The notes under the pieces: model-generated
Databases searched by the model: none
What the model was told of the DNA's origin: nothing
Seen by the model: the letters and a program-made list of their open reading frames with translations, nothing else
In this document: one piece after another, positions 6,745 to 42,790 of the stretch
How the letters are laid out: each line of letters starts with the position of its first letter
Position numbering within the stretch: the first letter of the stretch is position 1
Origin: Spirochaetales bacterium
GTDB taxonomy: Bacteria > Spirochaetota > Spirochaetia > SZUA-6 > JAFGRV01
Assembly: GCA_016935735.1 (NCBI GenBank)
Contig: JAFGQK010000300.1
Span: 3,437-67,436 of the forward strand
Length of the DNA stretch: 64,000 bases
Direction: 5' to 3'
Made by a program: the position numbers and the translations under genes

Positions 6745-6768
6745 TAATATTACACTACTTGTTTATTA

Positions 6769-6842
6769 GCCACCTTAGCTCAGCTGGCCAGAGCACGTGA
6801 TTTGTAATCTCGGAGTCCTCGGTTCGAATCCGAGAGGTGGCT
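6769..6842 (+). tRNA. tRNA-Thr (anticodon UGU)
   Basis: Hand-folded cloverleaf. Acceptor stem gccacct/aggtggc of 7 bp. D arm gctc/gagc. Anticodon loop tTTGTAa. T arm ctcgg-ttcgaat-ccgag. 5-nt variable loop. CCA not encoded. Confidence 0.85.
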
Positions 6843-6853
6843 TTCTTACCGGA

Positions 6854-6888
6854 ACCTGATTCCTGTTATAAGGAAGCAGGTTTTTTTA
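6854..6888 (+). terminator. Rho-independent terminator downstream of tRNA-Thr
   Basis: Hairpin acctg-a-ttcc ... ggaa-g-caggt followed by a run of 7 T. Confidence 0.6.
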
Positions 6889-7343
6889 TTTTCCAGGTGT
6901 CATTTTGTTACTTGCATTTATTTTTCCCTTATAAAGAGTATAGTATCTAATTCATCTGCGTTCTATACCTTGCATAGACCAAAAAACTGGAAAATGTGTA
7001 AAAAAAAAGATAAATTTTATTCCAATGATAAGAGGAGTTTGGTATAGTAACAATCAGAGGTATTATTATATTATGATATACAATCGAAGTGATGCAGGTT
7101 GTCCGGTTTTGTGAAGATGCTGTTAAAAAGAAAATATTTACGACAGATTTTATTTTGGATGAAACAATTACTTTACTTTTACTGTTTCCGGTAGTTCCTG
7201 TTTACCAATTGTCCGGCAGTATGGATATGTGAGCTGCAAAAACAACCAGGAAGTAAAGGTTATCAGGTCAAATTGCTGAACTTTTTTTATTGTTTATAAT
7301 TGAACTATAGTTTAAAACTAATTGAAAAAAGCAGGTTATTTTT

Positions 7344-8477
7344 ATGAAATATAGTTTTGTAATCCCCACATATAATAATAAAAGGCTTTTAGAAAATACT
7401 CTTGAAGCATTACATCATCAGGAGGGTTTCGGAAAAGATGAGTACCAGGCAGTGATAGTGGATGACGGCTCGGATGATAATACACACCAAATCATTGAAA
7501 AGCAAAACAGGAACTATAATCTGAAATATATTTTTTTGGACAGGATGACAGACTCATGCAGGGCAAAAGCAAGAAATTGCGGCTGGAAGAATGCAGATGG
7601 AGAAATAATTATTTTTATTGATTCGGATATAATTGTGAAGAGAAATTATCTGTCTCAATTAACCGGATGTTATGAAATGGAATCTAACATGGTTGTTTTC
7701 GGAACCAGGTTGATGCTGCAGGATGATATAGAGACGGAAGAAATATCAAATGGTGAAATATTCAGAAAGTATAAATTCGATAGATCCAAAGCGGAATATT
7801 TTGAACACAGACATTATTTGTTTAACACAATGTCATACAATATCAATTGCTTTTTAGACCCATGGTTGTATGCATACAGTTGTAATGTGGCTATTCCCAG
7901 GAAGATTATAAATGAAGAAAGGGGATTTGATGAGAACTATAAAGGCTGGGGAGTAGAGGACCTGGAATTGTCATATAAAATATATCTTAAGGGAGTAAAG
8001 TTTGTATTCAACAGCAATCTTGAAGCTTTTCATCAAAATCACACCAGAGCAACCAATGTTAACGTAAAAAGTGGTGTATATAATGCTGAATGTTTTATAC
8101 GTAAGTATCCTGATGCTTTAAAAATATTTCCTCACGAGGTTAAAAAACTCTTGCTGATAGGCGGCCTTGAACACGATTTTACAGGCATGCAGGAAGAAGT
8201 GGAATATATAGGAAAGAAAATAGAAGCTTGTTTACCTCCAAACACTAAATGCAATAAAACTGAAATAATAGAGTTCAAAAATAAAGCGGATATTGACAAG
8301 ATTAAAGCAAAAATTAAGAAATTAACAGCGAGCAGCGATATTAGAATTATTGTAAACGACTATGTAGAAGACACTGATTTAGGTATCTGGATACAATTAC
8401 TTGATAAGTCTGGAAGCGTACCGCTGTATTTTGTAATGTCAAAAAAATTGAATGCCCCTGGTTTCCCGGGGCCTTGA
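7344..8477 (+). CDS. Family-2 glycosyltransferase (GT-A fold) with a roughly 120-aa conserved C-terminal extension; paralog of 9991..11154
   Basis: YSFVIPTYNN ... VIVDDGSDDNT ... IIFIDSDIIV (DxD). C-terminal region shared with its paralog (DY.E..DLGIWIQLL). Confidence 0.8.
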   Translation: MKYSFVIPTYNNKRLLENTLEALHHQEGFGKDEYQAVIVDDGSDDNTHQIIEKQNRNYNLKYIFLDRMTDSCRAKARNCGWKNADGEIIIFIDSDIIVKRNYLSQLTGCYEMESNMVVFGTRLMLQDDIETEEISNGEIFRKYKFDRSKAEYFEHRHYLFNTMSYNINCFLDPWLYAYSCNVAIPRKIINEERGFDENYKGWGVEDLELSYKIYLKGVKFVFNSNLEAFHQNHTRATNVNVKSGVYNAECFIRKYPDALKIFPHEVKKLLLIGGLEHDFTGMQEEVEYIGKKIEACLPPNTKCNKTEIIEFKNKADIDKIKAKIKKLTASSDIRIIVNDYVEDTDLGIWIQLLDKSGSVPLYFVMSKKLNAPGFPGP

Positions 8478-8687
8478 TGATATATACTTAAATTTACTAA
8501 AATTTTGCTTGACAATAAATCTACTTTGTGTTACTTTTATTTCATTAATTTAATTCAGTTAAACAAATAATAAATAAATTTGGTCTACGTGGAGAAAATA
8601 GGTGAATTAATAAATGGATGTTTTCTATCAAAGACTATCGAGTAGACCGAAAGCTAAAATAATTATTTTAACCGGAGGTATAAATAT

Positions 8688-9866
8688 ATGGAATATACAG
8701 TAGGAACTAATTGGGATTTTGATTTAATAGATAAGATAAATTACCCTGAAGTAAAGTCGGTATTCGGAGGAATTCCCGATGCATTGATCGCAAGTGGAAG
8801 ATCATCCTTTATGATCAATCCGATTCAGGAAGAAAACCTGAAGAATTATATAGGTAAAGTGCACGAAAAGGGGTGGAAGTTCGAATTTAATGTCAATTCT
8901 GGTTGTATAGAAAATATCGAGTTAACACCGGCAGGGCATAAAAAAATATTGAAATATTTTGAGTGGATAGAAAGCCTGGGTGTTGATTCTGTTATTATTA
9001 GCATACCGAACTTAGTCCAGATAGTTAAAAAGTTTTTTCCGAAACTGGAAGTTAAAATATCAACCTATCAAAAAATAAATAGTGTGGAAATGGCCACCCG
9101 TTTTGAAGATATGGGAGCAGATGCGATAATGCTTTCAGAACATATAAACAGGGACTTCAAGCTTTTACAGGGAATAAGAAACAATATAAAGTGTAAATTG
9201 ATGCTGATCGCAAATGTGGGATGTGTTTATGCGTGTGCAAACATGCATAGCCATACAAACAGCGTAGCACACAGCGGTGCGGAATCAGCAATCAATACAA
9301 TATTAACCGAGGTGTATGCAGCGGATTGTTTATACAAAAGGATCAGCAATCCCGTGGAATTAATAAAATCACGCTGGATCAGACCGGAAGATGTCGGTTA
9401 CTACGAAGAAATAGGGATAGATATGTTTAAAATAATCGACAGGCATTCGAGTACAGAGGCCCTGGCAGAAAGAATGAAAGCATACCACGAAAGAAGTTAT
9501 GACGGTAATCTTATAGATTTACTTGGCCAGATCATCAACAAAAAAAAGGGTGCACCTATAGATATGGATAGAGTCTTTAATCTGAAAAATCCTGAAGATA
9601 TGAAAAAAGTGGAAAAATTCTTAGGGGTCTTAAATATCTTAATTTCCGATCTATATTACCTTGATAATAAAGCAATACCCGATGACTTTTTAGAAGAATT
9701 TAAAAAGAGAGATTGCAAAAGGATGTCCTGCCTGAAATGCGGTTACTGTAAAAAAATTGCAGACATGGTAATAAAGAAGACCCAGGATGACGAACAGATT
9801 CAAGGGACTATACATATGCTTAAAGAAGTAAAACAGGAGATACTTGACGGATCTTTACTTTATTAG
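8688..9866 (+). CDS. Peptidase U32 family protein (collagenase-like TIM barrel; the family that includes the Fe-S O2-independent hydroxylases UbiU/UbiV, RlhA and TrhP)
   Basis: Block-wise similarity to U32 proteins: N-terminus GTNWDFDLIDKINYPEVKSVFGG (compare AGNLEKL ... YGADAVY.GG); VDSVIISIPNLVQIV; LEVKISTYQKINSVEMATRFEDMGADAIMLSEHI; Cys-containing segment NVGCVYAC; C-terminal cluster CKRMSCLKCGYC. Confidence 0.6.
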   Translation: MEYTVGTNWDFDLIDKINYPEVKSVFGGIPDALIASGRSSFMINPIQEENLKNYIGKVHEKGWKFEFNVNSGCIENIELTPAGHKKILKYFEWIESLGVDSVIISIPNLVQIVKKFFPKLEVKISTYQKINSVEMATRFEDMGADAIMLSEHINRDFKLLQGIRNNIKCKLMLIANVGCVYACANMHSHTNSVAHSGAESAINTILTEVYAADCLYKRISNPVELIKSRWIRPEDVGYYEEIGIDMFKIIDRHSSTEALAERMKAYHERSYDGNLIDLLGQIINKKKGAPIDMDRVFNLKNPEDMKKVEKFLGVLNILISDLYYLDNKAIPDDFLEEFKKRDCKRMSCLKCGYCKKIADMVIKKTQDDEQIQGTIHMLKEVKQEILDGSLLY

Positions 9867-9990
9867 TTTGATAAGCCTTGTGCAGCACCTTAAAAAAACA
9901 ACAATTCGGGCCTTGACAAATGTTGAGGAATTCAACAAAATTACACCAATTGTCGTTTTTAAGAGGTGGTATTCAGTAACCTGAAAGTGG

Positions 9991-11154
9991 ATGATAAAAT
10001 ATAGTTTTGTGATACCTGCTTATAATAATAAACGGCTTCTCAAGAACACTCTGATAGCCTTGAATTATCAGGAGAATTTCGGAAAAGAAGATTACGAAGT
10101 TGTTATAATAGATGATGGCTCTGACGATAATACAGAAGCTTATATCAGTGATATAAACAAAAACTATGCTTGCCAGTACATTTACATTGAAAGAGACGAG
10201 AAATCCTGCCGGAGCAGAGCAAGGAATTACGGCTGGAATGCTGCAAAAGGCGGGGTAATAATTTTTATTGACTCGGATATATTAATTAATAGAAATTATT
10301 TAAAAGAAATCGAAAGATGTTTTGATATAGATGACAATATTATATTATTTGGTACAGTATTCAGGCTTAAAGAGGATATTTCCCTGGAAGATGTTGAAGA
10401 TGGAAGCATATTTAAACAATTTGTTTCAGGAATCAATAAAATAGAATATCTGGAAGAAAGGCATATTTTTTTTAATATTTTTTCCTATAATAATTATTTT
10501 CATCCTTTCAGTTGGAGTTTTGTTTTTAGCGGTAACGTCGCTGTATCCAGAAAAAACCTGAAGGCTATAGGCGGATTCGATGAAGCTTACGTGTGTTGGG
10601 GAGGAGAAGACACTGAATGGGGTTACAGGGCATATAATAATGGATTAAGGCTTGTATATAATCATAAACTTGAGGCATTGCATCAGTATCACCAGGAAGA
10701 GATACAGAAAAAAAATTCCAGTAATAAAGCCAATCTGGATTACTTTTTCAGAAAACATCCTCAAGCATTAAGTTTCTTACCGGAGGAATCAAGATATAAA
10801 GTCTTGTCTGGATTTTCAAAAAACGAGGAAAATACAATAAAAACTGAAGCTGAAATGAGAGACAGATTAATCAGGATACTTAATGATGTTGAAAAGAATA
10901 TACGAGATACAAATCAAAAAATAGAGATAACTGTTGCTTTGCGGGATAAAAATAGGTTTTTAGAGATAAAAGAAATAATTGACTTCTTATCAAAAAGACC
11001 GGGGATTTTATTAATAGTCAAGGATTATAATGAAACCGGTAATCTCGATGTATGGATTCAGTTAATGGGTAAAAGAGAAAGCACCCCAATGTATTACCCG
11101 ATGAATAGGGAAAAATTTGATGATTTTATCAGAAATTATAGAAGCAGCCTTTAG
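9991..11154 (+). CDS. Family-2 glycosyltransferase (GT-A fold) with a conserved C-terminal extension; paralog of 7344..8477
   Basis: YSFVIPAYNN ... VIIDDGSDDNT ... IIFIDSDILI. C-terminal LLIVKDYNETGNLDVWIQLMG. Confidence 0.8.
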   Translation: MIKYSFVIPAYNNKRLLKNTLIALNYQENFGKEDYEVVIIDDGSDDNTEAYISDINKNYACQYIYIERDEKSCRSRARNYGWNAAKGGVIIFIDSDILINRNYLKEIERCFDIDDNIILFGTVFRLKEDISLEDVEDGSIFKQFVSGINKIEYLEERHIFFNIFSYNNYFHPFSWSFVFSGNVAVSRKNLKAIGGFDEAYVCWGGEDTEWGYRAYNNGLRLVYNHKLEALHQYHQEEIQKKNSSNKANLDYFFRKHPQALSFLPEESRYKVLSGFSKNEENTIKTEAEMRDRLIRILNDVEKNIRDTNQKIEITVALRDKNRFLEIKEIIDFLSKRPGILLIVKDYNETGNLDVWIQLMGKRESTPMYYPMNREKFDDFIRNYRSSL

Positions 11155-11275
11155 GCAAACAGGAGATAGTAAGCTTTATTAAATCGATTAGTTCATATAA
11201 ATTCTATAAATAGGCAATATATAAAAAACGATCGGAAAGCGGTAGAGAATATAGTTAATTGGTATCATATACCAA

Positions 11276-11429
11276 CAATCTTTTGGATTGCCGGTATTTC
11301 CAATAGTAGTGGTTGCCTGAAAATTATCAGGACTAATTTATTATACTATAAAGAATTATTCACCATGCTAAATGTACCGATGAGGCAAATCACTTTATTA
11401 AGGAGTATATGTTATTTTACGCAAAATAA
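11276..11429 (+). promoter_or_regulatory. Structured leader element D1 (paralog of D2 at 14067..14181). It ends in an SD sequence plus the 6-codon uORF MLFYAK.
   Basis: About 70% identity to the region upstream of the 3HCDH gene. Conserved segments: ttttggatt..tatttccaat.gtagtggtt.gcc and ggcaaa.cactttat.aaggagtata.atg. Long-range complementarity agtggtt(t)gcc / ggcaaa(c)cact. Confidence 0.5.
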
Positions 11430-11436
11430 CAAAGTA

Positions 11437-11519
11437 TTGGCCGCCAGGTTAATAAGATCAGTATAATTTTAAAAGAACCTGGACAGTCTGTTAATTGGGT
11501 GGGCGTAACCAACGTTATG
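11437..11519 (+). repeat. Island-specific structured repeat element A, copy 1 (+ orientation)
   Basis: ttggccgccaggttaat ... aaaagaacctggacag ... gttaattgggtgggcgtaaccaacgttatg. Conserved internal inverted repeat ccaggtt/aacctgg. About 75-80% identical to copies at 16994..17080 (reverse) and 23066..23153. Confidence 0.7.
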
Positions 11520-11538
11520 TTAAATAAAAAGGAATAAG

Positions 11539-12273
11539 ATGCAGTATATTACCAAAAAGTTAATTGAAACCACTGGTATTATTGAGATTAATAATCCACC
11601 CCGGAATCTCATCGATGAACCGGAATTCCTCGATATCGATGATTTAAATGGCTGGATAATAAAAAACTCTTTAAAAGGAGTAATCATCAGAGGGGTGGGC
11701 AGGAATTTTTCCGCCGGTGCCAATAAAGAGAAATTTTACGAGAAAGTAATAACAAATAAGACAATGGAGGGGGAGTTCAGCCGGGGGAGAAAGATTCTTA
11801 ACTTTTTTGAGTCTCTGACCATACCCACCCTGGCCTTGATACAGGGGGCTTGTTTCGGGGCGGGTTTGGAAATTGCACTCAGTTGTCATTTAAGAATTTG
11901 CAGCGACAATGCCCTCATCGCCTTTCCTGAATCCAATTATGACCTGATGCCCGGTTTCACAGGCACCTACAGGTTACCCAGGTTAATCGGCAAAGGTAAA
12001 TCCCTTGAAATAATATTATCAGGGGAGATAATAGATCCGCTTAAGGCCCTGGCATACGGAATTGTGGATTATGTAAAACCGAAAAAGGAAGCTGATGATT
12101 TTGCCCTTGAATTGCTAAAAAAATTGACAGCGAACAGGCCGCTTCATGTGATCAATGCGATTACAAAATCAATAAATAATTATTTTCTGCTGGATAGAGA
12201 CTCTGCTTTAAAAGAGGAAGCCAAACTATTCTGTCAGCTGGTGAGACAAAAATATCATGATGAAAAAACTTGA
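11539..12273 (+). CDS. Enoyl-CoA hydratase/isomerase (crotonase-fold) family protein
   Basis: Crotonase-fold motifs: IIRGVGRNFSAGANKE, FGAGLEIALSCHLRI, FPESNYDLMPGFTGTYRLPRLIG. Confidence 0.75.
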   Translation: MQYITKKLIETTGIIEINNPPRNLIDEPEFLDIDDLNGWIIKNSLKGVIIRGVGRNFSAGANKEKFYEKVITNKTMEGEFSRGRKILNFFESLTIPTLALIQGACFGAGLEIALSCHLRICSDNALIAFPESNYDLMPGFTGTYRLPRLIGKGKSLEIILSGEIIDPLKALAYGIVDYVKPKKEADDFALELLKKLTANRPLHVINAITKSINNYFLLDRDSALKEEAKLFCQLVRQKYHDEKT

Positions 12274-12940
12274 TTCCATTCTTTGGGAAGAAGCGGATAG
12301 GATAGGTCATTTGATACTTAATGATCCTCCTGCTAATCCAATGGATGTTCATTTTTTTGAAATCCTGCAGCAGATAATAGATGTGAAGATTGATATCGAC
12401 AACATTGATGCTCTTGTGATATATGGACAGGGCAGACATTTTTCTGCCGGTGCGGATCTTGAAGATGTTACACGAGATGTGGTAACTGATACATTAAAAT
12501 ATCCTGATGCCTTGTGCCGGAATAGCCGGGCTTTTTCCTTTTTTTCGGACATGACTATACCGGTGATTGCTTTAATAAATGGGGTTTGTCTGGGATCAGC
12601 TCTTGAACTGGTCTTATGCTGCCACATCAGAATTGCCGGCAATACTGCCCTTTTAGGATTGCCCGAGTCCACCTTCGACTTGATGCCGGGCTGTGGAGGA
12701 ACACAAAGATTGGTGGATATAGTCGGCCTGTCTAAAGCCATGGAAATGATTTTTACAGGTAGTAATTTGAATGCAAAAGAAGCACTGGAAGCCGGTTTAG
12801 TGGATGCTGTTTTCCCAAAGACGAATATTACAACAGAAGCCACCAGGCTGGCAAAAGGTATTGCTGAAAATTATCAAAAGCACGATAAGAGACAATATAT
12901 AAAAAAATATTTATCCGGGCAGGTGACAAAATATGAGTAA
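12257..12940 (+). CDS. Enoyl-CoA hydratase/isomerase (crotonase-fold) family protein, second tandem copy
   Basis: GQGRHFSAGADLE; LGSALELVLCCHIRIA; LPESTFDLMPGCGGTQRL. Overlaps the preceding gene by 17 nt. Confidence 0.75.
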   Translation: MMKKLDSILWEEADRIGHLILNDPPANPMDVHFFEILQQIIDVKIDIDNIDALVIYGQGRHFSAGADLEDVTRDVVTDTLKYPDALCRNSRAFSFFSDMTIPVIALINGVCLGSALELVLCCHIRIAGNTALLGLPESTFDLMPGCGGTQRLVDIVGLSKAMEMIFTGSNLNAKEALEAGLVDAVFPKTNITTEATRLAKGIAENYQKHDKRQYIKKYLSGQVTKYE

Positions 12941-14048
12941 TAAATATGTAAAACTGATGGGCTGCGGTTCCTATCTGCCGGGCAAGCCTGTACCTTTTGA
13001 TGATGTGGATAAAGTATTGGGCTGTTTTACAAAAGCTCCACCCCAAATTATCAAGTGGTTGGAAAATATCAAACCGGTGATGAAAGAGATCCTGGAAGTA
13101 AAGTATTATCATTATGCCATTGATCCCGAAACCCGGGAATTTACGGAAGATAATCTGAGTCTTTGTGTAAAAGCTGCAGGGAAGGCGTTAGCCGACTGCG
13201 GCATGGAACCCGGTGATATTGATTTTATCATCTACGGAGGGCCCTACCTGTACCAGATGCCTTGCCTTTCAGTACAGATTCAGGATGCCCTGGGTATTGA
13301 AAACTGTGCAGAAATGTCCATCCAGGCAAACTGTACATCCGCCTACAAGGCGCTGATGACGGCTTATCACCTGATTCGTGACGGGGGCTGTAGGACACCC
13401 CTGGTACTTTCTTCGAATATGCCCAGTGCCCAGTTAAGGGTTGAACATTATCACCAGGAAATTGTCAGGAAAGAAGACCTGTTTTTGCGCTGGTTTTTAT
13501 GTGACGGGGCCGGGGCGTTGATTCTGCAGGAAAGTAATGAGAGATCAAAGGGATTTTACATTGAAAATGTCTATCTGGAATCACCCGGTAGGAGGAAACC
13601 TTCAGCAATGTATACGAACTGGCCGGGATATTATCTCAATCCGCAGGAGGTTTATGAAAAGGGTCTCCATCACTTGAAACAGATGTTTCAAAAGCAGTTA
13701 ACCGAACATTTTCACGAGGAAGGGGGAACTATTTTTTTTAAAGGATTGATGCGGATGATCGAAAAATGCAACATCGATCTCGGCCGGCTTAAATACCTGC
13801 AGATAAATATGCCTTCCAGGCATGTGGTGGATTTGATCATCGATGAGTGTAAAGTCCTGGGAATAGAGAAAGAGCAGATATATTCATCATTGAGTGAATA
13901 CGGATATACCGGGCCTCCTGCAGCCTTTATTTCCATAGACCAATTTGTGAAAGAAAAGAAATTAAACCACGGTGATTTACTGATCAGCTTTGTGACCGAG
14001 GTAAGTAAGTTTATGCAAGCCGGTTTCAGTTTATCTTATTTTGAATGA
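12933..14048 (+). CDS. Thiolase-fold condensing enzyme: 3-oxoacyl-ACP synthase III (FabH)-like, or alternatively an HMG-CoA-synthase-like enzyme
   Basis: FabH-like layout: VKAAGKALADCGMEPGDIDFIIY; candidate nucleophile IQANCTSAYKAL; His in NMPSRHVVD. Length 371 aa. Distinguishing FabH from HMGS would need HMM scoring. Confidence 0.55.
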   Translation: MSNKYVKLMGCGSYLPGKPVPFDDVDKVLGCFTKAPPQIIKWLENIKPVMKEILEVKYYHYAIDPETREFTEDNLSLCVKAAGKALADCGMEPGDIDFIIYGGPYLYQMPCLSVQIQDALGIENCAEMSIQANCTSAYKALMTAYHLIRDGGCRTPLVLSSNMPSAQLRVEHYHQEIVRKEDLFLRWFLCDGAGALILQESNERSKGFYIENVYLESPGRRKPSAMYTNWPGYYLNPQEVYEKGLHHLKQMFQKQLTEHFHEEGGTIFFKGLMRMIEKCNIDLGRLKYLQINMPSRHVVDLIIDECKVLGIEKEQIYSSLSEYGYTGPPAAFISIDQFVKEKKLNHGDLLISFVTEVSKFMQAGFSLSYFE

Positions 14049-14066
14049 CGGGGAATTTATTGACAA

Positions 14067-14181
14067 TGTTTTGGATTATCAGTATTTCCAATCGTAGTGG
14101 TTTGCCAATTATTTATATTATAAAAAATTATTTCTCACCTCAAATCGTCAGGTGGGGCAAACCACTTTATAAGGAGTATAA
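14067..14181 (+). promoter_or_regulatory. Structured leader element D2 (paralog of D1), immediately upstream of the 3HCDH start. Contains a TTGACA hexamer at 14060..14065.
   Basis: An 11-bp long-range stem agtggtttgcc (14096..14106) / ggcaaaccact (14156..14166) encloses an inner hairpin cacct ... aggtg and an AT-rich segment. The SD aaggag lies just 3' of the stem. Confidence 0.5.
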
Positions 14182-16562: not shown

Positions 16563-16658
16563 AGGTTTCATCACCGGAAAAACAGGAGTATTGATCAAAA
16601 TTTCTTATTGTAATATAATGTGTCAAATTGCACAAAATTTATAAGGTGGAGTATGTTA

Positions 16659-16961
16659 ATGAAAAAGATAACTGAAAATACACGTGCCGAGGTTAAAGAT
16701 ATCATATTTGACTTTTTAGCCGATGCATGTGAAATAGAGAAATCGGAATTAAATGAAGATATGAAAATTATCGAAGAATTGGGGGGCGATTCCCTGATGT
16801 TCTTAAGTATGCTGGAAATATTCAAGAAAAAATATAATTTGAATGTTGAACTGAAAGCCATCGGCAAATATATCTTAAAACATCCTGCAGAAACAATCGG
16901 GGAAATCATTGATGCTACTTTAGTAATTATTGAGTATGAAAATAGGATTGTTGACATGTAA
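16659..16961 (+). CDS. Acyl carrier protein
   Basis: LGGDSLMFLSMLE phosphopantetheine-attachment (DSL) motif. Start chosen at the ATG 8 nt after SD aaggtgg. The listed ORF extends further upstream. Confidence 0.75.
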   Translation: MKKITENTRAEVKDIIFDFLADACEIEKSELNEDMKIIEELGGDSLMFLSMLEIFKKKYNLNVELKAIGKYILKHPAETIGEIIDATLVIIEYENRIVDM

Positions 16962-16993
16962 CCGATAGTTCCCCCGGGCTGTCGAACTTATAG

Positions 16994-17080
16994 CATAACG
17001 TTGACTACGCCCACGACCCGGATAATGAGCTGTCCAGGCTCCAATTAATTATACTAATCTGTTTAACCTGGCGGCAGGCG
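16994..17080 (-). repeat. Repeat element A, copy 2 (reverse orientation)
   Basis: Its reverse complement reads cctgccgccaggttaaacagattagtataatt ... cctggacag ... gggcgtagtcaacgttatg, homologous to A1 and A3. Confidence 0.7.
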
Positions 17081-17085
17081 TTTAT

Positions 17086-17134
17086 CTATTTTGTTTAAAA
17101 TCTTGTTATTTTAACAAGATTTTAAACAAAATAG
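17086..17134. repeat. Perfect 49-bp palindrome P1 (23-bp arms, 3-nt centre)
   Basis: ctattttgtttaaaatcttgtta ttt taacaagattttaaacaaaatag. Homologous to P2 at 23012..23061. Confidence 0.85.
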
Positions 17135-17157
17135 TATATATAAGGAAGTTTTATTGC

Positions 17158-18096
17158 TTGTATTTATGTATGAAAAATAATGTAATGGCAGATATTGTGT
17201 TCCCGGCTTTTGGTGCGGAATACCTGGGTTGCGAAAGGGATTTTGTCCAGCAGGAAACAACCGGGATTGAATTTTACCTGCAAAGAGCGGAAAAAGCTGT
17301 AGATATCGATAAGCAGTTTATTGAGGCGGATAAAGGCGCAGAGGTCTACGATGAATTGCAATCCCAGTTTGCCAGCTATATTTACAGCTGTATCTTTGCG
17401 GATATCATTAATCAACGAGGAATCAAATCCGGGCTGGTGGCAGCGTATAGCATGGGATTGTACGCGGCCTTATACCATTGCGGAGTTTTTTCTTTTGAAG
17501 ATGGTTTACGCATTATCAGGGATGCCTGTCAACTGGCTCAGGCCACTGCAAAAGGTAAAAAGTTTGCTATGGGGGTCATTGTCGGTTTGGATGTTGATGA
17601 TGTAAAAGGTTTGATTTCCGCCCATGCAACCGGTGTGGATATAATCAATATCAACAATCAATATCAAATCATTATCTGTGGGCCGGAGAATGAAGTCGTG
17701 AAAATAATTACTGCTGCTCAAGATGAGGGGGCGTTGAAAGCTTATATCCTGCAGATAAAAAACCCCTATCATACAGCCCATGTAAAGTCTGCAAGGCATG
17801 AATTTGAAAAAGTGCTGGAAACCTATTCATTACAAAACAGCAAATACCCTCTGGTCTCTTCTCTGGATCAGAAGATATACAATACCCGGAAGGAAATAAT
17901 TAATGAAATGGTTAAAAACATTTATAATTCTTCCAACTGGTATAAAACAATGGAGGTATTGATTGAAAAGGGTTCAAAAAAAATCATCGAGTGCGGTCCG
18001 GGAAAGAGCCTTTGTAATATGGCCAGATTCATACCAGGGGATTACAAAATATACCATATGAAACTGGTTTACAATAATAATTTCAACCTCAAATAA
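17158..18096 (+). CDS. Acyltransferase (malonyl-CoA:ACP transacylase-like, FabD fold)
   Basis: FPAFGAEYLG N-terminus. Nucleophile elbow AYSMGLYAAL in the GHSxG position. Length 312 aa. The true start may be one of the internal Met residues (MADIVFP). Confidence 0.6.
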   Translation: MYLCMKNNVMADIVFPAFGAEYLGCERDFVQQETTGIEFYLQRAEKAVDIDKQFIEADKGAEVYDELQSQFASYIYSCIFADIINQRGIKSGLVAAYSMGLYAALYHCGVFSFEDGLRIIRDACQLAQATAKGKKFAMGVIVGLDVDDVKGLISAHATGVDIININNQYQIIICGPENEVVKIITAAQDEGALKAYILQIKNPYHTAHVKSARHEFEKVLETYSLQNSKYPLVSSLDQKIYNTRKEIINEMVKNIYNSSNWYKTMEVLIEKGSKKIIECGPGKSLCNMARFIPGDYKIYHMKLVYNNNFNLK

Positions 18097-18134
18097 GCAA
18101 TTAAATCCGGCAGAAATGATTTATCAGGTGGGCT

Positions 18135-19478
18135 CTAAATAGTATCCGTGCCTTCTTTAATCAACCAGAGATCGGAAACATTTTTATAAAATTCTTCGAG
18201 GGGTAATGTTGTTTTTAATACCGAATTAAAAAAATTGTATTTATTAAGGTCATAATCAATAATCTGTTCCTTTACTTGATTGTAATACACAGTTCCGGGC
18301 ATGGGAGTAAGAATCGTATACCCCGCATAGACTACTTTGTGGGAGTTTGAATAATCAGCCATGGCCTTAAAATCATCTTCCTTATAATAAGGAGGAATGA
18401 CATAATTTCCCCGGATCTTTATCCCATTGGCCTGGAGTATATTAATCGCCTTTTCTATCAGTTCCGGCCTGGTATCTTTATTATATTTTTTTAATTCATC
18501 ATAGCGATAGGATTCAAAACCGCAGATAACTACTTGCAGACCGCATTGAGCCAGTTTCTCGATTAAATCGGGATGCGCGGCTACCGTGTCTACACGAATA
18601 TCAATGACCAGCTCCTTTTTTATGTTTTCTTCCAGGATACGGTCACATAATTGGTGAATGAATCCGGGATTCACGACTGTGTTCGCATCGGCAAAACGAA
18701 TAACGTTATACTCAGGATCTATGGATTGCATTTCATCAATAATGCTTTTTATCTCCCTCTGGTAAAATTTTCCTTTGTATTGAGGCCGGATGGAACAGAA
18801 AGAACAATTGTAGGGGCATCCCAGTGAAGTAAAAATATAGGTGATCGGGCCGATTTTTCCCCGTATTTTGTAGGCCTGTATCCATTTTTTGATAAATGAA
18901 CGGTCCGGCACGATAAAATCCTGCCCGGCTGAATAATACCGGGTTGTTAAAGGCTTTCCGGGAACCAATTGATTGTGCTTATTAATTAATATTCCGGCAA
19001 CGGCTTCTACATCTTTGTTTTCCTGTTTTGCGCTGACGATTTCTCTGAAAATTTTAGCGGATTCCCCGGGACAGATAATATCCGCCGCGGTACTGATAAA
19101 ATCCTCCGGACATAATGTTGCATGGAGTCCGCCGGCAATGGTAAGGATGTTATGATTATAGGTTTTTACAGTTTTTAAAATAGCGGCTCCACCGTTAAAT
19201 TCCGATGCTATAAAAGTAACCCCGACCAAATCAGGATTGATTTTTTCAAGGTATTGACGGGTTAATTCGCCGGGGGGAGGAGCATGCGGGTGTAAATCAT
19301 ATTCTGCTTTCATATCCAGGACTGTAACATCATGGTCCCTGACTGCCCCGGCAACGGTCAATAATCCCAACGGAGGGCCGATTAATTTCTGATGAATAAA
19401 TTTTTTGGCATCTGCAGAAGCATAGTGAAATATTCCATTTTCATTTGATCTGGGCGGATTGATTAAAAGAATTTTCAT
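18135..19478 (-). CDS. B12-binding domain radical SAM protein (class B rSAM)
   Basis: N-terminal cobalamin-binding-like domain (ILLINPP ... GPPLGLLTVAGAV). LGCPYNCSFCS CxxxCxxC motif. Length 447 aa. Confidence 0.8.
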   Translation of the reverse strand: MKILLINPPRSNENGIFHYASADAKKFIHQKLIGPPLGLLTVAGAVRDHDVTVLDMKAEYDLHPHAPPPGELTRQYLEKINPDLVGVTFIASEFNGGAAILKTVKTYNHNILTIAGGLHATLCPEDFISTAADIICPGESAKIFREIVSAKQENKDVEAVAGILINKHNQLVPGKPLTTRYYSAGQDFIVPDRSFIKKWIQAYKIRGKIGPITYIFTSLGCPYNCSFCSIRPQYKGKFYQREIKSIIDEMQSIDPEYNVIRFADANTVVNPGFIHQLCDRILEENIKKELVIDIRVDTVAAHPDLIEKLAQCGLQVVICGFESYRYDELKKYNKDTRPELIEKAINILQANGIKIRGNYVIPPYYKEDDFKAMADYSNSHKVVYAGYTILTPMPGTVYYNQVKEQIIDYDLNKYNFFNSVLKTTLPLEEFYKNVSDLWLIKEGTDTI

Positions 19479-19633
19479 ATATTCTCCCGAATTATATCAA
19501 TTTATAAATTATACAGAATCCTGATTGTAATAGAAAAGAAGGTGTTTTGCAACATCTTACCGGTGGGAGTAATTCCCGGTTCCCCGTTTTTTATAGTCTT
19601 TTCTGTATTCTATCAATAGAATTATCAATAAAA

Positions 19634-19659
19634 TGTGGACAAAAGAATTGCTGTCCACA
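19634..19659. promoter_or_regulatory. Candidate operator: perfect 8-bp inverted repeat TGTGGACA-N10-TGTCCACA
   Basis: Sits in the divergent intergenic region between the two radical SAM genes and abuts the -35 hexamer. Confidence 0.45.
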
Positions 19660-19663
19660 ACTA

Positions 19664-19692
19664 TTGACAGTATCTCAATAATATAGTATACA
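19664..19692 (+). promoter_or_regulatory. Sigma70-like promoter for the SPASM radical SAM gene (TTGACA-17 bp-TATACA)
   Basis: Consensus -35, 17-bp spacer and -10 TATACA, leaving a roughly 110-nt leader to the ATG at 19808. Confidence 0.5.
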
Positions 19693-19807
19693 TAACTGAA
19701 AAATTATAGAGGGCAAGTTGTAATTTCCTAAATAAATTTTAACTCTTGACAGGGAAATTTGTCTTAAAAGAATCTATTTTAAACAAACAGAAAGAAGGAT
19801 TTTGTTT

Positions 19808-20773
19808 ATGGAAAATGATATTTTTCAGAAAGATTTGAAACACATAGGGATTGTCCTTTCATTTACATGTAATCTGAAGTGTAAAATGTGTAAATTATGG
19901 ATGAAGCCCCCATTGTCGCTTTCCCTGGATTCGATCAAGAGTATATTAAAACAGGCTAAAGCATTGGGTGCAGACATTTTTACACCTTTCGGGGGGGAAC
20001 CGGTATTAAGAAAAGATATTTTTGAAATTTTTAGTTATGCCCACCAATTAGGGTATGATATTGAATTTGTGACAAATGGAACTTTAATCAATGAGCAGGT
20101 AGCTGAAAGATTATTCAAGTATATATCCGGGATTTCCATATCCATTGAAGGATCGAAAGAACATCACGATGAAATAAGAGGTAATGGGACTTTTGATAAG
20201 GCAATCTCCGCAGTCAAGTTTCTGACAAAGTACAAACGCCGGGATGCGAATATCTGTTTAACTATGGTCGTAACCAAAAATAGCTATAAATATATGAAAA
20301 AACTTGTCGATTTGGCCAGTGAGCTCAAAGTTGATAAAATTTTTTACCAACCTTTCAACAGGGCCCAGGCAAGAAAAGAAAATGTACATGACTTTCTGGT
20401 CCCGGCAGTCGAAATTCCCGTTTTGCAGCTGGAAATAGAGAGTACCATCAATTATGCAATGCACAAGAATGTACAATTGGGTTCTGTTATCGAATTTAAA
20501 TTGATCCCTTTATACTTTAAACTAAATGGTAAAATAAAACCAACAAAAGGATGCTTCTTACCATACCATGATATGTTAATTATTCCCAATGGTAAAGTAT
20601 TTGCTTGTCCCTTCGAGCGTATTGAAGTAGGTGATATCAATGAGAACAATCTTGACTATATCTGGAATTCCGAAAAATATGAAAAACAAAGAGAAAAAGC
20701 AAGATTAAAAAAATGCCGCGGTTGTCTTGCCAATTGCTCAGATTTGGATTCATATAAAATAGAAAGTGCATAA
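19808..20773 (+). CDS. Radical SAM protein with C-terminal SPASM/twitch Cys-rich domain
   Basis: FTCNLKCKMCK CxxxCxxC. C-terminal CFLPYH ... ACPFE ... CRGCLANCSD. SD gaaagaagga 8 nt upstream of the ATG at 19808. The listed ORF begins at an upstream TTG. Confidence 0.8.
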   Translation: MENDIFQKDLKHIGIVLSFTCNLKCKMCKLWMKPPLSLSLDSIKSILKQAKALGADIFTPFGGEPVLRKDIFEIFSYAHQLGYDIEFVTNGTLINEQVAERLFKYISGISISIEGSKEHHDEIRGNGTFDKAISAVKFLTKYKRRDANICLTMVVTKNSYKYMKKLVDLASELKVDKIFYQPFNRAQARKENVHDFLVPAVEIPVLQLEIESTINYAMHKNVQLGSVIEFKLIPLYFKLNGKIKPTKGCFLPYHDMLIIPNGKVFACPFERIEVGDINENNLDYIWNSEKYEKQREKARLKKCRGCLANCSDLDSYKIESA

Positions 20774-20798
20774 AATCCTGGTATAACCGCAGAATAAT

Positions 20799-21644
20799 TT
20801 ATTTTAAACCGTTATGCGATTTATAATATTTTACGATGAGACATTCGTTAAAACGCTTTATTACATTATATGCTAAACCAAAGCCGTCAAGCAATTTCTT
20901 AATTTCATTACGTTCACGATAAGGTGTATCACCAGGAAGACTGTCATACAGATCTTTTGGGTCGATATTCATCTCTTTCGCCTGCATAAAAATTTCGGCC
21001 ATTTCCTGGCGTTCTTTTTTTAATATTCTTGAGAAAGTAATCCTTATCTTTATCCAGGAAAAAAAAACTCTCAAAAAATCTTTGTTTGTATATGTCATTA
21101 TCTGTTTTACCGCAAGCAAAGAACCTTTCCGGGCAAGTTCATCAATATCATTAAGTCTTTTGCGCTTTAGCTTACCCGAGGAATCAAGAATGCCGATTTT
21201 TTTATAAATTCTTTCAAGTACTCTCTCGACCTGGTAAAATGCGACAAAGAGGTGACCATGCAATGCAACAACACGCATAGCCTCATTAATTATTGTTTTG
21301 ATTAGTTTCTCATCCGAAAGACGATCCACCACACCGGAAGAAATAATAACTGTTTTATAAGAACAGTTCTCAAAAGGCAGGCTTCTTGCATTTGCTTTTA
21401 TTAATTTAATGGAATGCCTGATATAGGCGTATTTTATCATTTCATCTACGATATCGACACCGTCGGCTATATAACCTTTATCACGGAGATGTTTTACTAT
21501 CAGTCCCTGTCCTGCACCGATTACCAATACAGGGCTTGCAATATCATTAATTATTTTATCCGTCACATGAGTATTCATGTGACGGTTTTCCATTTTATCC
21601 CAGAAAGGACTCCATATTGACCACCATTTTATATTCTTATCCAT
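20799..21644 (-). CDS. Class I SAM-dependent methyltransferase
   Basis: VLVIGAGQGLIVKHL motif I, acidic D after the beta2 strand, Rossmann-like layout. Confidence 0.6.
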   Translation of the reverse strand: MDKNIKWWSIWSPFWDKMENRHMNTHVTDKIINDIASPVLVIGAGQGLIVKHLRDKGYIADGVDIVDEMIKYAYIRHSIKLIKANARSLPFENCSYKTVIISSGVVDRLSDEKLIKTIINEAMRVVALHGHLFVAFYQVERVLERIYKKIGILDSSGKLKRKRLNDIDELARKGSLLAVKQIMTYTNKDFLRVFFSWIKIRITFSRILKKERQEMAEIFMQAKEMNIDPKDLYDSLPGDTPYRERNEIKKLLDGFGLAYNVIKRFNECLIVKYYKSHNGLK

Positions 21645-21898
21645 AAATATTTCTCACTTTTAAAATAATTTTTAACCCATCGCAGCCTTCGGCTGCAACC
21701 AGAGTAGTTCCAAAAATCTTCTTAAAATTGGAAGATTTGGGGGTATAATACTATATTACTTGAGTTTGTCCCGCAACCCCAAACAAGGCAAGCCAATAAC
21801 ATCCATCCATTATATATGGGGGCGTGATTGAATTAAGGCATACTATATATAGCATTGATAGAAGGCAATTTCATCATAATTGAAGTTGTCGGACAACC

Positions 21899-22879
21899 TC
21901 AATGATAGACCTCTTGATGGACTAAAGCAGCCTGTCCCTGCTCCAACCACCTGGCGCAATCCGGGGGTAGTATTTCAGAAACAGTAGTTTCATAAAGGAC
22001 TATCTCATCTTCAGACAGGACCCCTTTCCAGCGATTATTCGTTCCTCTGTACAAAAAACGCTGGCTTCCGCCAAAGAAAGCTTTTCCCCCACCTGGAACG
22101 ATATTATCCGCATTGTTTTTCATCGACTTGAATGATGCATTATCAAGTAAAGTTGGCCAGATATCTTCATTTACTTCAATATCAAGATATCTTGCGATCA
22201 GACGTATTTGCCTATCAATATCTCCTAAAAGATCATTGAAATGCATCAGCAAAATATTGGGTAGATGCCTGTAAGCCCACCATGTTTGCACATTGTTCAG
22301 AATTGATAAACCAAGATTTCCCTCACCTAATCCGGAGAACCAGCCTTTAGTCATAAAGTCTTTAAAGAATTCGTGAATATCATCTGATGGGCGAGTAAGG
22401 GGATCACCGACCCGGCCAGGGGTATTGTTGAATATGTCAAACATTTCCGGCGTTAAATGGCGGTAGTGATTCCAGAGAGACATAAAAATATCTCGTCCGT
22501 CACGCGCAATGTAGATATATTTTACCTGTGGATAATAGATAAGACCGTCGAGGGGTAGGTGCGTTTTGACAAAGCGCCGATGAGTTTGCGCTTCGATGAG
22601 ATCAAATTGCTTTTTAATCATGGCGGGCCGAAAATCGATCCACGGTGATAACTGCCAGATCGGTGCAGGTATTTCTTGATTTTGAAAAATCAAATGAGCA
22701 ACAATGGTCTGTATCCATGTTGTCCCCGATTTGCCGGTAGTGGCGATGATAATGTCATCAGCACGCGGTTTAAAATCATTCCAATAGGTGCTGTCCATGG
22801 TATGATTTTGATAGATATGATTGACGCTCGGCAGTGGTGACATTCCCCACGGTTCACCTTTATTATTTTTTGTTGTCAT
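21899..22879 (-). CDS. PAPS-dependent sulfotransferase family protein
   Basis: 5'-PSB motif TGKSGTTWIQ and 3'-PB motif RDGRD ... typical of Sulfotransfer_1 domain enzymes. Confidence 0.8.
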   Translation of the reverse strand: MTTKNNKGEPWGMSPLPSVNHIYQNHTMDSTYWNDFKPRADDIIIATTGKSGTTWIQTIVAHLIFQNQEIPAPIWQLSPWIDFRPAMIKKQFDLIEAQTHRRFVKTHLPLDGLIYYPQVKYIYIARDGRDIFMSLWNHYRHLTPEMFDIFNNTPGRVGDPLTRPSDDIHEFFKDFMTKGWFSGLGEGNLGLSILNNVQTWWAYRHLPNILLMHFNDLLGDIDRQIRLIARYLDIEVNEDIWPTLLDNASFKSMKNNADNIVPGGGKAFFGGSQRFLYRGTNNRWKGVLSEDEIVLYETTVSEILPPDCARWLEQGQAALVHQEVYH

Positions 22880-23011
22880 GATTCACTCCTCACATGTTAT
22901 TTAAAAACTTCCGATCCGGGCGTATGCCCGGTACCGGAAAATTTAAAGAAATAGGTTCCTGCCTGAATTGTCGATACTATTATGGCAATAACCGACAAGG
23001 AGGAATCTATG

Positions 23012-23061
23012 CTATTTTGACTCAAAATCTTGTCAAAATAACAAGATTTTAAGCAAAATAG
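23012..23061. repeat. Imperfect 50-bp palindrome P2 (homolog of P1)
   Basis: ctattttgactcaaaatcttgtcaaaataacaagattttaagcaaaatag. Two arm mismatches relative to a perfect palindrome. Confidence 0.8.
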
Positions 23062-23065
23062 ATAA

Positions 23066-23153
23066 ACGTTGGCCGCCAGGTTAATGAGACCAGCATAATT
23101 AAAAGAACCTGGATAGCTTGTTAATTAGGTCGTGGGCTTAAGCCTTCGTTATG
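23066..23153 (+). repeat. Repeat element A, copy 3 (+ orientation)
   Basis: ttggccgccaggttaatgagaccagcataattaaaagaacctggatag ... gttaattaggtcgtgggcttaagccttcgttatg. Confidence 0.7.
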
Positions 23154-23580
23154 GTAAAAACCTACAACAATCGGCAGGAAAAGTCCAGTAAAATAATGCA
23201 ATTATGGAGCGCCTGCGGTACTTTTACGAATGTAATTCACACAGGTACAAATTACTCTAAGTTCGAGGCTGGGGTAATCATGGAAGAGAATAAATCGGAC
23301 TGGAAGGCTGTTTGTCTTTACTGGCTATTCAGGTACAGTAAAAAGAGCGTATTATGTAAAAATACGGAATACAGATCGGTATGGAAAAGAATACGCTCTT
23401 GAAGGCGAAGGTCTTTTCGCAAGATGTAACTACTATTGTGCCTCGACGAATGTTGAGGAGTACCTTATAAATTGAGTCCCATTGTTGTTAAAATGGCTGT
23501 ACCGTAAATAAAAAAAACCGAAAATACAGGAAAATCTATATAAAATACTTGCATAAATCAGAATTATTGATTAAATTGCT

Positions 23581-23589
23581 TGGTATAAT
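23581..23589 (+). promoter_or_regulatory. Extended -10 element (TGgTATAAT) upstream of tRNA-Tyr
   Basis: tggtataat lies 38 nt upstream of the mature tRNA 5' end. No well-spaced -35 hexamer. Confidence 0.35.
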
Positions 23590-23626
23590 TGATTTTGGTA
23601 GAACAGCCACACAAGAGGTGGCTTCA

Positions 23627-23708
23627 GGGGAGATACCCGAGTGGCCAAAGGGGGCAGACTGTAAATCTGTTGGCTCAGCCTTCGAAGGTTCGAATCCTTC
23701 TCTCCCCA
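23627..23708 (+). tRNA. tRNA-Tyr (anticodon GUA), long variable arm
   Basis: ggggaga ... cccgagtggccaaaggg ... cagaCTGTAAAtctg ... long variable arm ... ggttcgaatcc ... tctcccc-a. Close to the E. coli tRNA-Tyr pattern. CCA not encoded. Confidence 0.85.
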
Positions 23709-30946: not shown

Positions 30947-30970
30947 CTTTTATCTAAAAGTGATTATAAA

Positions 30971-31345: not shown

Positions 31346-31443
31346 CTTTATTAATTAAGTTTATACACCTCTTTTATAAAAGGAATTGACTTTTTCTTTT
31401 TTTTTCTGTTTAATAAAATCTAACATAGAGAGTTATTATCATT

Positions 31444-41505: not shown

Positions 41506-41569
41506 ATAGATTTAGTACTTTTTTAATGGGCAGGATAAACCCTGCCCATTATTAAAAATGGAGGCTTGA

Positions 41570-42619: not shown

Positions 42620-42790
42620 TAACTTTTGGAGGTTTGACTGTGAAAAACATCCGTTTGAAAAGGATACCTTACCTGTTTCTTTGATTATTTACCGGAAACA
42701 TTGAAAAATTCCGCCGATAGTGCTACTGTATGTAGCGATTAAGATTGCCGGCATAAAATATTTCTACGCGATTATTATTTGGAGGTAATC

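Follow-up and report, generated by a model that had tools for sequence, protein, structure and literature searches.

The stretch of DNA analysed here, called the window below, comprises 64,000 nucleotides of a contig (JAFGQK010000300.1, assembly GCA_016935735.1) from the metagenome-assembled genome (MAG) of a Spirochaetales bacterium. It contains a segment of 16,783 bp that is bordered on the left by a tRNA-Thr gene (TGT; 6768–6843, plus strand; ARAGORN and Rfam, 61.4 bits) and on the right by a tRNA-Tyr gene (GTA; 23627–23708, plus strand; ARAGORN and Rfam, 60.9 bits), and that carries 14 intact metabolic genes and two families of intergenic repeats. ARAGORN calls exactly these two tRNA genes, Thr(TGT) and Tyr(GTA), across the whole window, and Rfam agrees. 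The open reading frames (ORFs) of the segment were scanned against Pfam and NCBIfam. The gene content and order between the tRNA genes given in an earlier reading of the bare sequence (the original prediction) were recovered, with every named domain confirmed, and the scans also bore out its statement that there is no megasynthase of the non-ribosomal peptide synthetase or polyketide synthase (PKS) type, no core enzyme for ribosomally synthesised and post-translationally modified peptides (RiPPs) and no integrase. Judged from the sequence, we take the segment to be a horizontally acquired, mosaic biosynthetic island, and of this description we count the insertion itself as shown.

The evidence for the insertion comes from related spirochaete contigs, which were located by using the flanking methionine aminopeptidase (MetAP) as a query. 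MetAP identity is 64% for L087, 66% for L088, 71% for L089 and 76% for L090, the closest relative found. The gene order Fe-ADH, MetAP, tRNA-Thr, tRNA-Tyr, CxxCxxCC is common to L087, L088 and L089, and synteny of the flank extends to the MBL gene in L087 and L088 and to YceG in L087. The tRNA-Thr gene of the island is 97–99% identical to its counterpart in L087–L090, and the tRNA-Tyr gene 94–96% identical to its counterpart in L087–L089. The gap between the two tRNA genes is 172 bp in L087, 14 bp in L088 and 12 bp in L089, and positions 6845–23625 of the window have no BLAST match in these three contigs. Because three relatives with the same flanks keep both tRNA genes nearly adjacent, the 16.8 kb constitute an insertion, and the horizontal acquisition proposed in the original prediction stands on this ground. 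In L090 (3862–4632) tRNA-Thr is followed by AT-rich non-coding DNA and then by the start of a protein-kinase-like ORF, with no tRNA-Tyr and nothing resembling the island. As L090 bears different DNA after tRNA-Thr, the site between the tRNA genes is variable, and it looks like a hotspot for differing insertions.

Pfam scans detected no integrase domain among the island ORFs, there are no mobility genes, and the 3' end of tRNA-Thr occurs once when up to 3 mismatches are allowed, which leaves no att direct repeat. Integration mediated by an integrase and an att site was consequently rejected. A compositional deviation, which would have agreed with the predicted transfer, is barely present: the GC content is 0.378 in the island compared to 0.386 outside it, and tetranucleotide usage is only slightly off (correlation with the flanks of 0.92–0.95 inside the island and 0.945–0.98 outside), so that the compositional signature of transfer is weak.

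The central part of the island contains an operon of discrete and apparently active enzymes resembling those of fatty acid synthases (FAS) and PKSs, with a dedicated acyl carrier protein (ACP) and intact catalytic motifs. On the plus strand it comprises the crotonases ECHa (244 amino acids; 11539–12273; PF00378, 108 bits) and ECHb (227 amino acids; 12257–12940; PF00378, 122.5 bits), a StlD/DarB-related condensing enzyme of KASIII-like type (KAS3; 12933–14048), a reductase of the 3-hydroxyacyl-CoA dehydrogenase family (3HCDH; 389 amino acids; 14182–15351; PF02737, 117.5 bits; PF00725, 73.4 bits), a FabF-like ketosynthase (KS; 15351–16562; TIGR03150 fabF, 417 bits, below the cutoff of 494), the ACP with its GGDSL motif (16620–16961; PF00550, 24.5 bits at a cutoff of 20.8) and a FabD-like malonyl-CoA:ACP acyltransferase (AT) with the motif AYSMG (17158–18096; TIGR00128 fabD, 156 bits, below the cutoff of 261; PF00698, 30.5 bits). 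A class B B12-binding radical S-adenosylmethionine (SAM) enzyme lies on the minus strand (18135–19478; PF02310, 54.9 bits; PF04055, 62.2 bits). The core genes overlap or abut, by 17 nt between ECHa and ECHb and 8 nt between ECHb and KAS3 (junction values of −17, −8 and −1 nt), as expected of an operon.

Both catalytic Glu residues are kept in ECHa (by alignment to 3pea) and in ECHb, and both proteins are closest to ordinary hydratases. The Cys-His-His triad of the KS is intact, with Cys151 and His291 shared by all 59 homologues and His328 by 58 of them, and the active-site Cys lies within a TACSSS motif. In the translations we read the DSL motif of the ACP and, in the AT, the active-site Ser (AYSMG) together with Arg and His motifs that we take to be those of a malonyl-specific FabD. 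There is no enoyl reductase among the core enzymes. The B12 radical SAM enzyme has a CPYNCSFC motif (CxxxCxxC type) and orthologues of 54–59% identity in about 30 loci; HpnR (124 bits) and BchE (123 bits) lead its NCBIfam matches, and it is a candidate C-methylase or BchE-like oxidative enzyme. A ladderane-type assignment was rejected, as the score to TIGR04072 is 33.7 bits compared to a cutoff of 360.

KAS3 is the most informative member of this set. Its best NCBIfam family is StlD/DarB (NF005293), its best solved relative in a search with the single sequence is StlD (E = 2e-17), and a profile of the KAS3 family matches StlD (5gk0) over the full length with E = 5e-22, at an identity of about 20–22%. 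The AlphaFold model of KAS3 has a pLDDT of 84.4, and when it was compared with the PDB by Foldseek, StlD chains occupied ranks 1–6 (TM 0.80–0.83, E ~1e-28), ahead of FabH (TM 0.67–0.70) and of AbyA1, PqsD, MxnB and CorB; the leading StlD match has a TM of 0.82, compared to 0.69 for FabH. These comparisons of profiles and of a predicted fold relate KAS3 to StlD, the ketosynthase that forms cyclohexanediones and resorcinols. The original label of the protein, "KAS-III/HMGS-like", is correct in its first part, whereas its second part, a likeness to HMG-CoA synthase (HMGS), has to be replaced by a likeness to StlD/DarB: the Pfam match is to ACP_syn_III only, and the NCBIfam HMGS model gives 25.6 bits against a cutoff of 244. 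As far as the sequences allow a classification, the locus is a FAS/PKS-like cluster of discrete enzymes whose condensing enzyme is related to DarB/StlD.

The active site of KAS3 is unusual. In alignments to FabH and StlD the nucleophile, Cys134, is kept, while His is replaced by Asn292 and Asn by Tyr325. All 83 orthologues among the 85 sequences of the KAS3 cluster have the combination Cys-Asn-Tyr. The other two sequences, from loci L030 and L076, are second copies, and in these the columns in question hold the canonical His and Asn. The residues of these two paralogues validate the alignment, and they also indicate that some genomes keep a conventional KASIII/DarB-type paralogue beside the cassette.

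Homologues of KAS3 are numerous (more than 1,250 at about 55% identity), and when a single genome was scanned for each GTDB species, a KAS3 relative was encoded in 332 of 344 candidate stretches, corresponding to 332 species. The neighbouring genes were checked in the best 80 of the 332 loci, and ORF clustering took in 83 loci. All of the best 80 are from MAGs, 60 of them Bacteroidota, 17 Spirochaetota (including Leptospirales) and 3 unclassified. The crotonase pair accompanies KAS3 in 81 of the 83 loci, a thioesterase of the 4HBT family (YbgC/FadM-type) in 76, the KS and 3HCDH in 54 each, the B12 radical SAM enzyme in 53, the ACP and the AT in 34 each, an AcpS-type phosphopantetheinyl transferase (PPTase) in 33 and a Methyltransf_2 O-methyltransferase in 21. 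The last of these occurs in Bacteroidales versions of the cassette, where Methyltransf_2 is combined with a Dimerisation domain, the architecture of plant-type phenol O-methyltransferases; some Bacteroidales versions also encode a PPTase together with a beta-barrel-like protein of the outer membrane. The core has its nearest relative in L095 (KAS3 identity 64%), a tight operon of the order ECH-KAS3-B12 radical SAM-3HCDH with spacers of 20–24 bp, and it shows no accessory genes in the 4.7 kb visible. We regard the unit ECH-ECH-KASIII-like-3HCDH-KS-ACP-AT-B12 radical SAM as a recurring, widespread and uncharacterised cassette. Literature searches found no characterised homologue or syntenic pathway for it, in line with the absence of a textbook match noted before.

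The remaining genes of the island could serve to modify a product. On the plus strand, ahead of the core, two GT2 glycosyltransferases flank a U32-family Fe-S protein (8688–9866; PF01136, 45 bits at a cutoff of 22.4). GT2a (377 amino acids; 7344–8477; PF00535, 84.8 bits) consists of a GT-A domain and a C-terminal region of about 140 amino acids without assigned function, and its best NCBIfam match is EpsD (115 bits, under the cutoff); GT2b (387 amino acids; 9991–11154) matches PF00535 (79.8 bits) and PF02709. The two are paralogues with 41% amino acid identity overall. Across the first 141 nt of the genes (7344–7484 and 9994–10134) their nucleotide identity reaches 77%, which suggests that gene conversion, or a recent duplication of part of the sequence, took place around the U32 gene.

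Eight Cys residues of the U32 protein are invariant in 19 homologues (C73, C179, C183 and C214, together with C343, C348, C351 and C354). Their spacing, C-x105-C-x3-C-x30-C followed by a C-terminal CX4CX2CX2C, is unlike the CX6CX15CX3/4C described for the family (PMC6747719). Homologues with 52–58% identity lie near PKS/FAS-like genes in three unrelated contigs (L091–L093), where the settings are a ketosynthase/chain-length factor (KS/CLF) pair, a type I PKS and an aryl-polyene-like FAS set. The only known reactions of U32 proteins are oxygen-free hydroxylations of aromatic rings with prephenate as the oxygen donor (PMC6747719, PMC10990095), and the island protein is a candidate oxygen-independent hydroxylase. 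In L091 (1–13700) the homologue (58%) stands amid a KS/CLF-like pair, UbiD, a flavodoxin-like reductase, methyltransferases, an asparagine-synthase-like protein and two radical SAM enzymes; this region may be another uncharacterised anaerobe cluster that uses a U32 tailoring step. The closest relatives of the island's KAS3 (64%) and U32 protein (81%) are both on short contigs, which did not reveal a donor lineage.

Beyond the core lie a SPASM-domain radical SAM enzyme (323 amino acids; 19802–20773, plus strand; PF04055, 77.9 bits; PF13186, 49 bits) and, on the minus strand, a class I SAM methyltransferase (281 amino acids; 20799–21644; PF13649, PF08241) and a sulfotransferase (21899–22879; PF00685, Sulfotransfer_1, 138.8 bits at a cutoff of 22). 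The sulfotransferase has the cytosolic SULT fold of enzymes that use 3'-phosphoadenosine-5'-phosphosulfate (PAPS); among solved chains it is nearest to phenol/aryl sulfotransferases (SULT1A1, E = 6e-20), and the 5'-phosphosulfate-binding motif TGKSGTTW can be read in its translation. Genes for PAPS synthesis were not found among the window ORFs scanned. The best NCBIfam match of the SPASM enzyme is AhbD (101 bits, far under the cutoff). A RiPP locus was considered and rejected: the SPASM enzyme has no RRE domain, the divergent spacer of 323 bp holds no plausible precursor ORF, and the small orf83 (83 amino acids; 23151–23402, plus strand) is unsupported. This ORF has no Pfam or NCBIfam match and no homologue in the 80 loci, and its start codon falls inside CGTTATG, the conserved end of repeat copy B; it is probably not a gene and is not counted among the 14.

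The island-restricted repeats reported earlier were confirmed in the sense that two families exist and that, within the window, they occur inside the island only. The first family has three copies: A (11414–11528, plus strand; nhmmer E = 6e-32), which is partial, lacks half of the palindrome and ends 11 nt before the start of ECHa; B (23003–23152, plus strand; E = 7e-46), whose palindrome side points towards the sulfotransferase start about 130 nt away; and C (16983–17144, minus strand; E = 4e-49), which is inverted relative to A and B. In this family a long palindrome precedes a conserved core, GCCGCCAGGTTAA...CCTGGA...GTGGGCGTA...CGTTATG. In copy C the palindrome has 23-nt arms that are 100% complementary (17086–17134, towards the AT start), and its fold has a z-score of −5.1. 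A promoter-like TTGACA-16-TAGCAT on the minus strand (23036–23009) overlaps the palindrome upstream of the sulfotransferase. The second family, with copies D (11266–11402, plus strand; E = 9e-41) and E (14055–14179, plus strand; E = 9e-34), spans the whole of an intergenic spacer. Its alignment ends in AAGGAGTATA(A)ATG; copy D ends in AAGGAGTATATG, which opens an ORF of 6 codons, and in copy E, which fills the spacer between KAS3 and 3HCDH, carries the 3HCDH ribosome-binding site and has an RNA fold z-score of −3.5, that ATG (14182) is the 3HCDH start. At the position of copy E, L095 has the B12 radical SAM gene and its short spacers instead.

All five copies are located at sub-operon junctions, namely GT2b/ECHa, KAS3/3HCDH, ACP/AT and upstream of the sulfotransferase. 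No copies were found in the 47 kb of flanks, in about 90 fetched loci or in viral contigs, and Rfam gave no match, either at gathering thresholds or at E ≤ 1. Scanning metagenomes for the exact pattern located one more copy of the first family in an unrelated context, on the 1.1 kb contig L094 (118–272), where it lies between the start of an unidentified gene and a MoaD/ThiS-like gene and has the same core with a different palindrome sequence; the first family is therefore not specific to the biosynthetic island. With this copy included, 3 of 4 copies have their palindrome on the side where a gene begins that is transcribed away from the element. Consensus folding, with four sequences only, gave a single compensatory pair whichever orientation was used, which speaks neither for nor against a conserved structure. 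Inspection by eye showed no terminal inverted repeats of the type found in miniature inverted-repeat transposable elements. The repeats could represent a shared promoter/operator module, an RNA leader or a small dispersed repeat. Because they are situated at sub-operon junctions and one family also occurs on an unrelated metagenome contig, they are not evidence of transfer, and on this point the original argument for horizontal acquisition does not hold.

Outside the island the window contains spirochaete housekeeping genes, among them a homologue of Borrelia P83/100 (2083–3738, minus strand), PBP2, RodA and a bacterial class A RNase P RNA (30970–31350; Rfam, 259 bits). The RNase P RNA and the P83/100 homologue are consistent with a spirochaete chromosome, and synteny with L087 would place the genes for DnaG and RpoD in the flank as well. 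A separate region at 41182–46072 contains an ORF of 107 amino acids followed by a radical SAM gene (41570–42619) with a Cys-rich C-terminus, a CARDB-domain protein, an LCM-type methyltransferase and a nitroreductase/ferredoxin fusion, and it may be a second small maturation or modification cluster.

On balance we lean towards the view that the island is an acquired cluster for a tailored, acyl-derived small molecule. In the pathway we propose, the FabD-like AT would load malonate onto the dedicated ACP and the FabF-like KS would form a beta-ketoacyl thioester, part of which would be turned into the 2-enoyl form by the 3HCDH reductase and the two crotonases. DarB, StlD and BrtD condense acyl thioesters of the beta-keto type with alpha,beta-unsaturated ones to carboxy-cyclohexanediones, the precursors of dialkylresorcinols (PMC6836626). 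The KS, 3HCDH and crotonases would make thioesters of both kinds, so the cassette would itself supply both substrates of a DarB-type reaction. KAS3, with its Cys-Asn-Tyr site, would then join two chains non-decarboxylatively into a head-to-head condensed, possibly cyclohexanedione- or resorcinol-like lipid, which the B12 radical SAM enzyme would methylate or modify oxidatively. The ring-forming step assigned to KAS3 is a tentative element, and we consider it less probable than the general proposal. Tailoring confined to this locus could include oxygen-free hydroxylation by the U32 protein, glycosylation by the two GT2 enzymes, methylation by the SAM methyltransferase, further modification by the SPASM enzyme and sulfation on a hydroxyl by the SULT1-like sulfotransferase. 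The substrates, the order of the steps, the formation of a ring and the service of all 14 genes to one product are what we infer.

By analogy, three independent hints point to an aromatic or phenolic product or acceptor, namely the chemistry of U32 proteins, the phenol-type sulfotransferase and the O-methyltransferase of the Bacteroidales cassettes. Products of the corresponding kinds exist, as glycosylated dialkylresorcinols (bartolosides; PMC6836626) and sulfated alkylresorcinols (PMC12135136) are known in bacteria. We speculate further that the cassette, made up of the thioesterase, the two crotonases and KAS3 and usually joined by the 3HCDH, KS, ACP, AT and B12 radical SAM genes, could be a new, widespread anaerobic route to head-to-head condensed or resorcinol-like lipids with undescribed ketosynthase chemistry. 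Here the U32 protein, as the first oxygen-independent hydroxylase in a natural-product pathway, would have been added to it along with glycosyl- and sulfotransferases, and the outcome would be a phenolic lipid bearing sugar and sulfate. We hold this extended version to be rather unlikely as it stands.

Several observations weigh against the general proposal. KAS3 scores under the curated thresholds (104.3 against 450 bits for NF005293 and 72.9 against 550 for NF053539 DarB), and the Cys-His-Asn triad of StlD (StlD His302) is replaced in it by Cys-Asn-Tyr, so the reaction may differ from that of StlD. The 14 island ORFs belong to families other than the DarA/StlC-type aromatase, and none matches the DarA model in NCBIfam. 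The 4HBT thioesterase family is not encoded anywhere in the window, and its usual position upstream of the first crotonase (here 11155–11538) is taken by two repeat copies; this leaves product release unexplained, or else the island copy of the cassette may be impaired. The closest solved structure for the GT2 enzymes is a polysaccharide synthase (GT2b matches the chondroitin synthase K4CP with E = 2e-25), and the tailoring genes are spread over separate transcription units that in part run in opposite directions. The contig belongs to a MAG, and the independent assembly L001 covers 7125–14182 only and not the tRNA junctions. No cassette member has been characterised, and the identity of the product is one that we infer. 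None of the tailoring genes accompanies the core elsewhere: the GT2, U32, SPASM, methyltransferase and sulfotransferase genes, like orf83, were found in 0 of the 80 other cassette loci. The island is not one conserved unit, as the core cassette alone recurs in the loci checked. A single pathway to a single glyco/sulfo-lipid, as in the original prediction, is thus argued from co-insertion and not from co-conservation.

The same observation speaks in favour of the most serious alternative, a patchwork of two or three independent units that entered the same variable tRNA site and have no common product: a GT2-U32-GT2 glycosylation unit, the acyl cassette, and a set of radical SAM, methyltransferase and sulfotransferase genes. 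The island consists of several transcription units on both strands, separated by spacers of 124–384 bp with repeats at the junctions; L095 shows that a tight operon can exist without accessory genes in the sequence seen; none of the three contexts of U32 homologues includes a flanking GT2; and the GT2 matches, in NCBIfam and among solved structures, are to polysaccharide enzymes. However, in three relatives the site lacks all of the units together, members of the U32 subfamily are repeatedly found close to PKS/FAS-like genes, and the island has no genes for polysaccharide export, a flippase or a priming transferase. Both a phenol-type sulfotransferase and a U32 hydroxylase require a small molecule as acceptor, and within the island the cassette is the sole candidate source of one. 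We judge a patchwork to be unlikely, though it deserves more weight than any other alternative to a tailored acyl-derived product.

It is less probable still that the product of the cassette is a structural lipid, for the membrane or envelope of anaerobes and not for secretion as a specialised metabolite, such as a modified fatty acid or a head-to-head condensed chain, of which the island would give a decorated version. The core occurs very widely, in 332 species at about 55% identity, and is vertically common in Bacteroidales and Spirochaetota, some Bacteroidales versions carry the outer-membrane beta-barrel-like protein and the PPTase, and clusters of FAS-like and radical SAM genes whose role is unassigned are reported across MAGs from anoxic waters (bioRxiv 10.1101/2022.12.20.521206). 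Yet close relatives have no cassette at the site, which makes it dispensable here, the island lacks an acyltransferase of the glycerol- or phosphate-linking kind, and the make-up of the cassette varies among lineages in a way more typical of accessory metabolism.

A catabolic, beta-oxidation-like role of the crotonase, 3HCDH and thiolase-fold genes is very improbable: the best NCBIfam matches of the crotonases and of 3HCDH are fatty-acid oxidation enzymes, but their operon also encodes the FabF-like KS, the FabD-like AT and a dedicated ACP, other versions of the cassette come with a thioesterase and a PPTase, and an acyl-CoA dehydrogenase, a CoA ligase and a degradative thiolase are missing. 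Least probable of all is an HMGS-type beta-branching cassette serving a trans-AT PKS encoded elsewhere, which is suggested by a superficial likeness of gene sets (KS, ACP, a thiolase-fold condensing enzyme, two crotonases and AT) and by the weak HMGS match of 25.6 bits, and which we rejected because the condensing enzyme matches ACP_syn_III and StlD and not the HMG_CoA_synt families, the KS keeps the active-site Cys (59 of 59 homologues) where beta-branching KS units have Ser, and both crotonases keep the hydratase Glu pair; moreover, the window contains no PKS, and the recurrent gene clusters of the 80 loci include no PKS megasynthase family, although no PKS-domain scan was made there.

If an acquired cluster for a tailored acyl-derived molecule is the correct interpretation, hundreds of uncultured anaerobic species of Bacteroidales and Spirochaetota would share an unstudied lipid or polyketide pathway, centred on a ketosynthase whose Cys-Asn-Tyr site departs from every characterised KASIII-type enzyme. 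The combination of U32, B12 radical SAM, SPASM and phenol-type sulfotransferase enzymes would then show how hydroxylated, sulfated lipids can be made without oxygen, and the island would be a test case for the proposal that U32 proteins are general prephenate-dependent hydroxylases. Orphan clusters are common in MAGs and no long-standing question is touched, so that the value of the locus is that of a well-defined target and not that of a surprise.

Among known systems the closest is DarAB/StlCD. KAS3 is nearest to StlD by profile and predicted fold and has StlD/DarB as its best NCBIfam family, and the KS, reductase and crotonases of the island would supply the two substrates of DarB (PMC6836626). 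The differences are the low identity and the scores far under the cutoffs, Asn and Tyr in place of His and Asn, the lack of an aromatase, and the partners of the cassette (crotonases, 3HCDH, KS, AT and B12 radical SAM enzyme), which are not part of DarAB; the hosts of the cassette, too, belong to strictly anaerobic lineages. The locus is not a DarAB cluster, with which it shares the StlD-like fold alone. The brt cluster provides a parallel for glycosyltransferases clustered with a condensing enzyme (PMC6836626). The adp cluster of Streptomyces davaonensis, which makes sulfatostatins, resembles the island in that a PAPS-type sulfotransferase is clustered with phenolic-lipid enzymes (PMC12135136), the phenolic product of the island being our own conjecture. 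Bacterial clusters with a sulfotransferase are rare, and a survey found six (PMC12135136). The adp scaffold is made by a type III PKS, adp has its own PAPS synthesis genes, and the likeness to AdpST is by description only.

Like other tRNA-associated islands, the segment is located beside tRNA genes, is absent from the site in relatives and occupies a variable site; it differs from them in having no integrase, no repeat of the tRNA 3' end, no mobility genes and a composition near that of the host. The U32 protein can be compared with UbiU/UbiV, TrhP and RlhA, with which it shares PF01136 and invariant Cys residues consistent with Fe-S binding, in an anaerobe that likely has a small molecule to hydroxylate. 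In the U32 literature consulted for this comparison we found no U32 enzyme assigned to a natural-product pathway. The island protein represents a distinct subfamily, with 24.9 bits to TrhP and a different Cys spacing, whose members lie near PKS/FAS-like clusters and not near quinone or RNA-modification genes.

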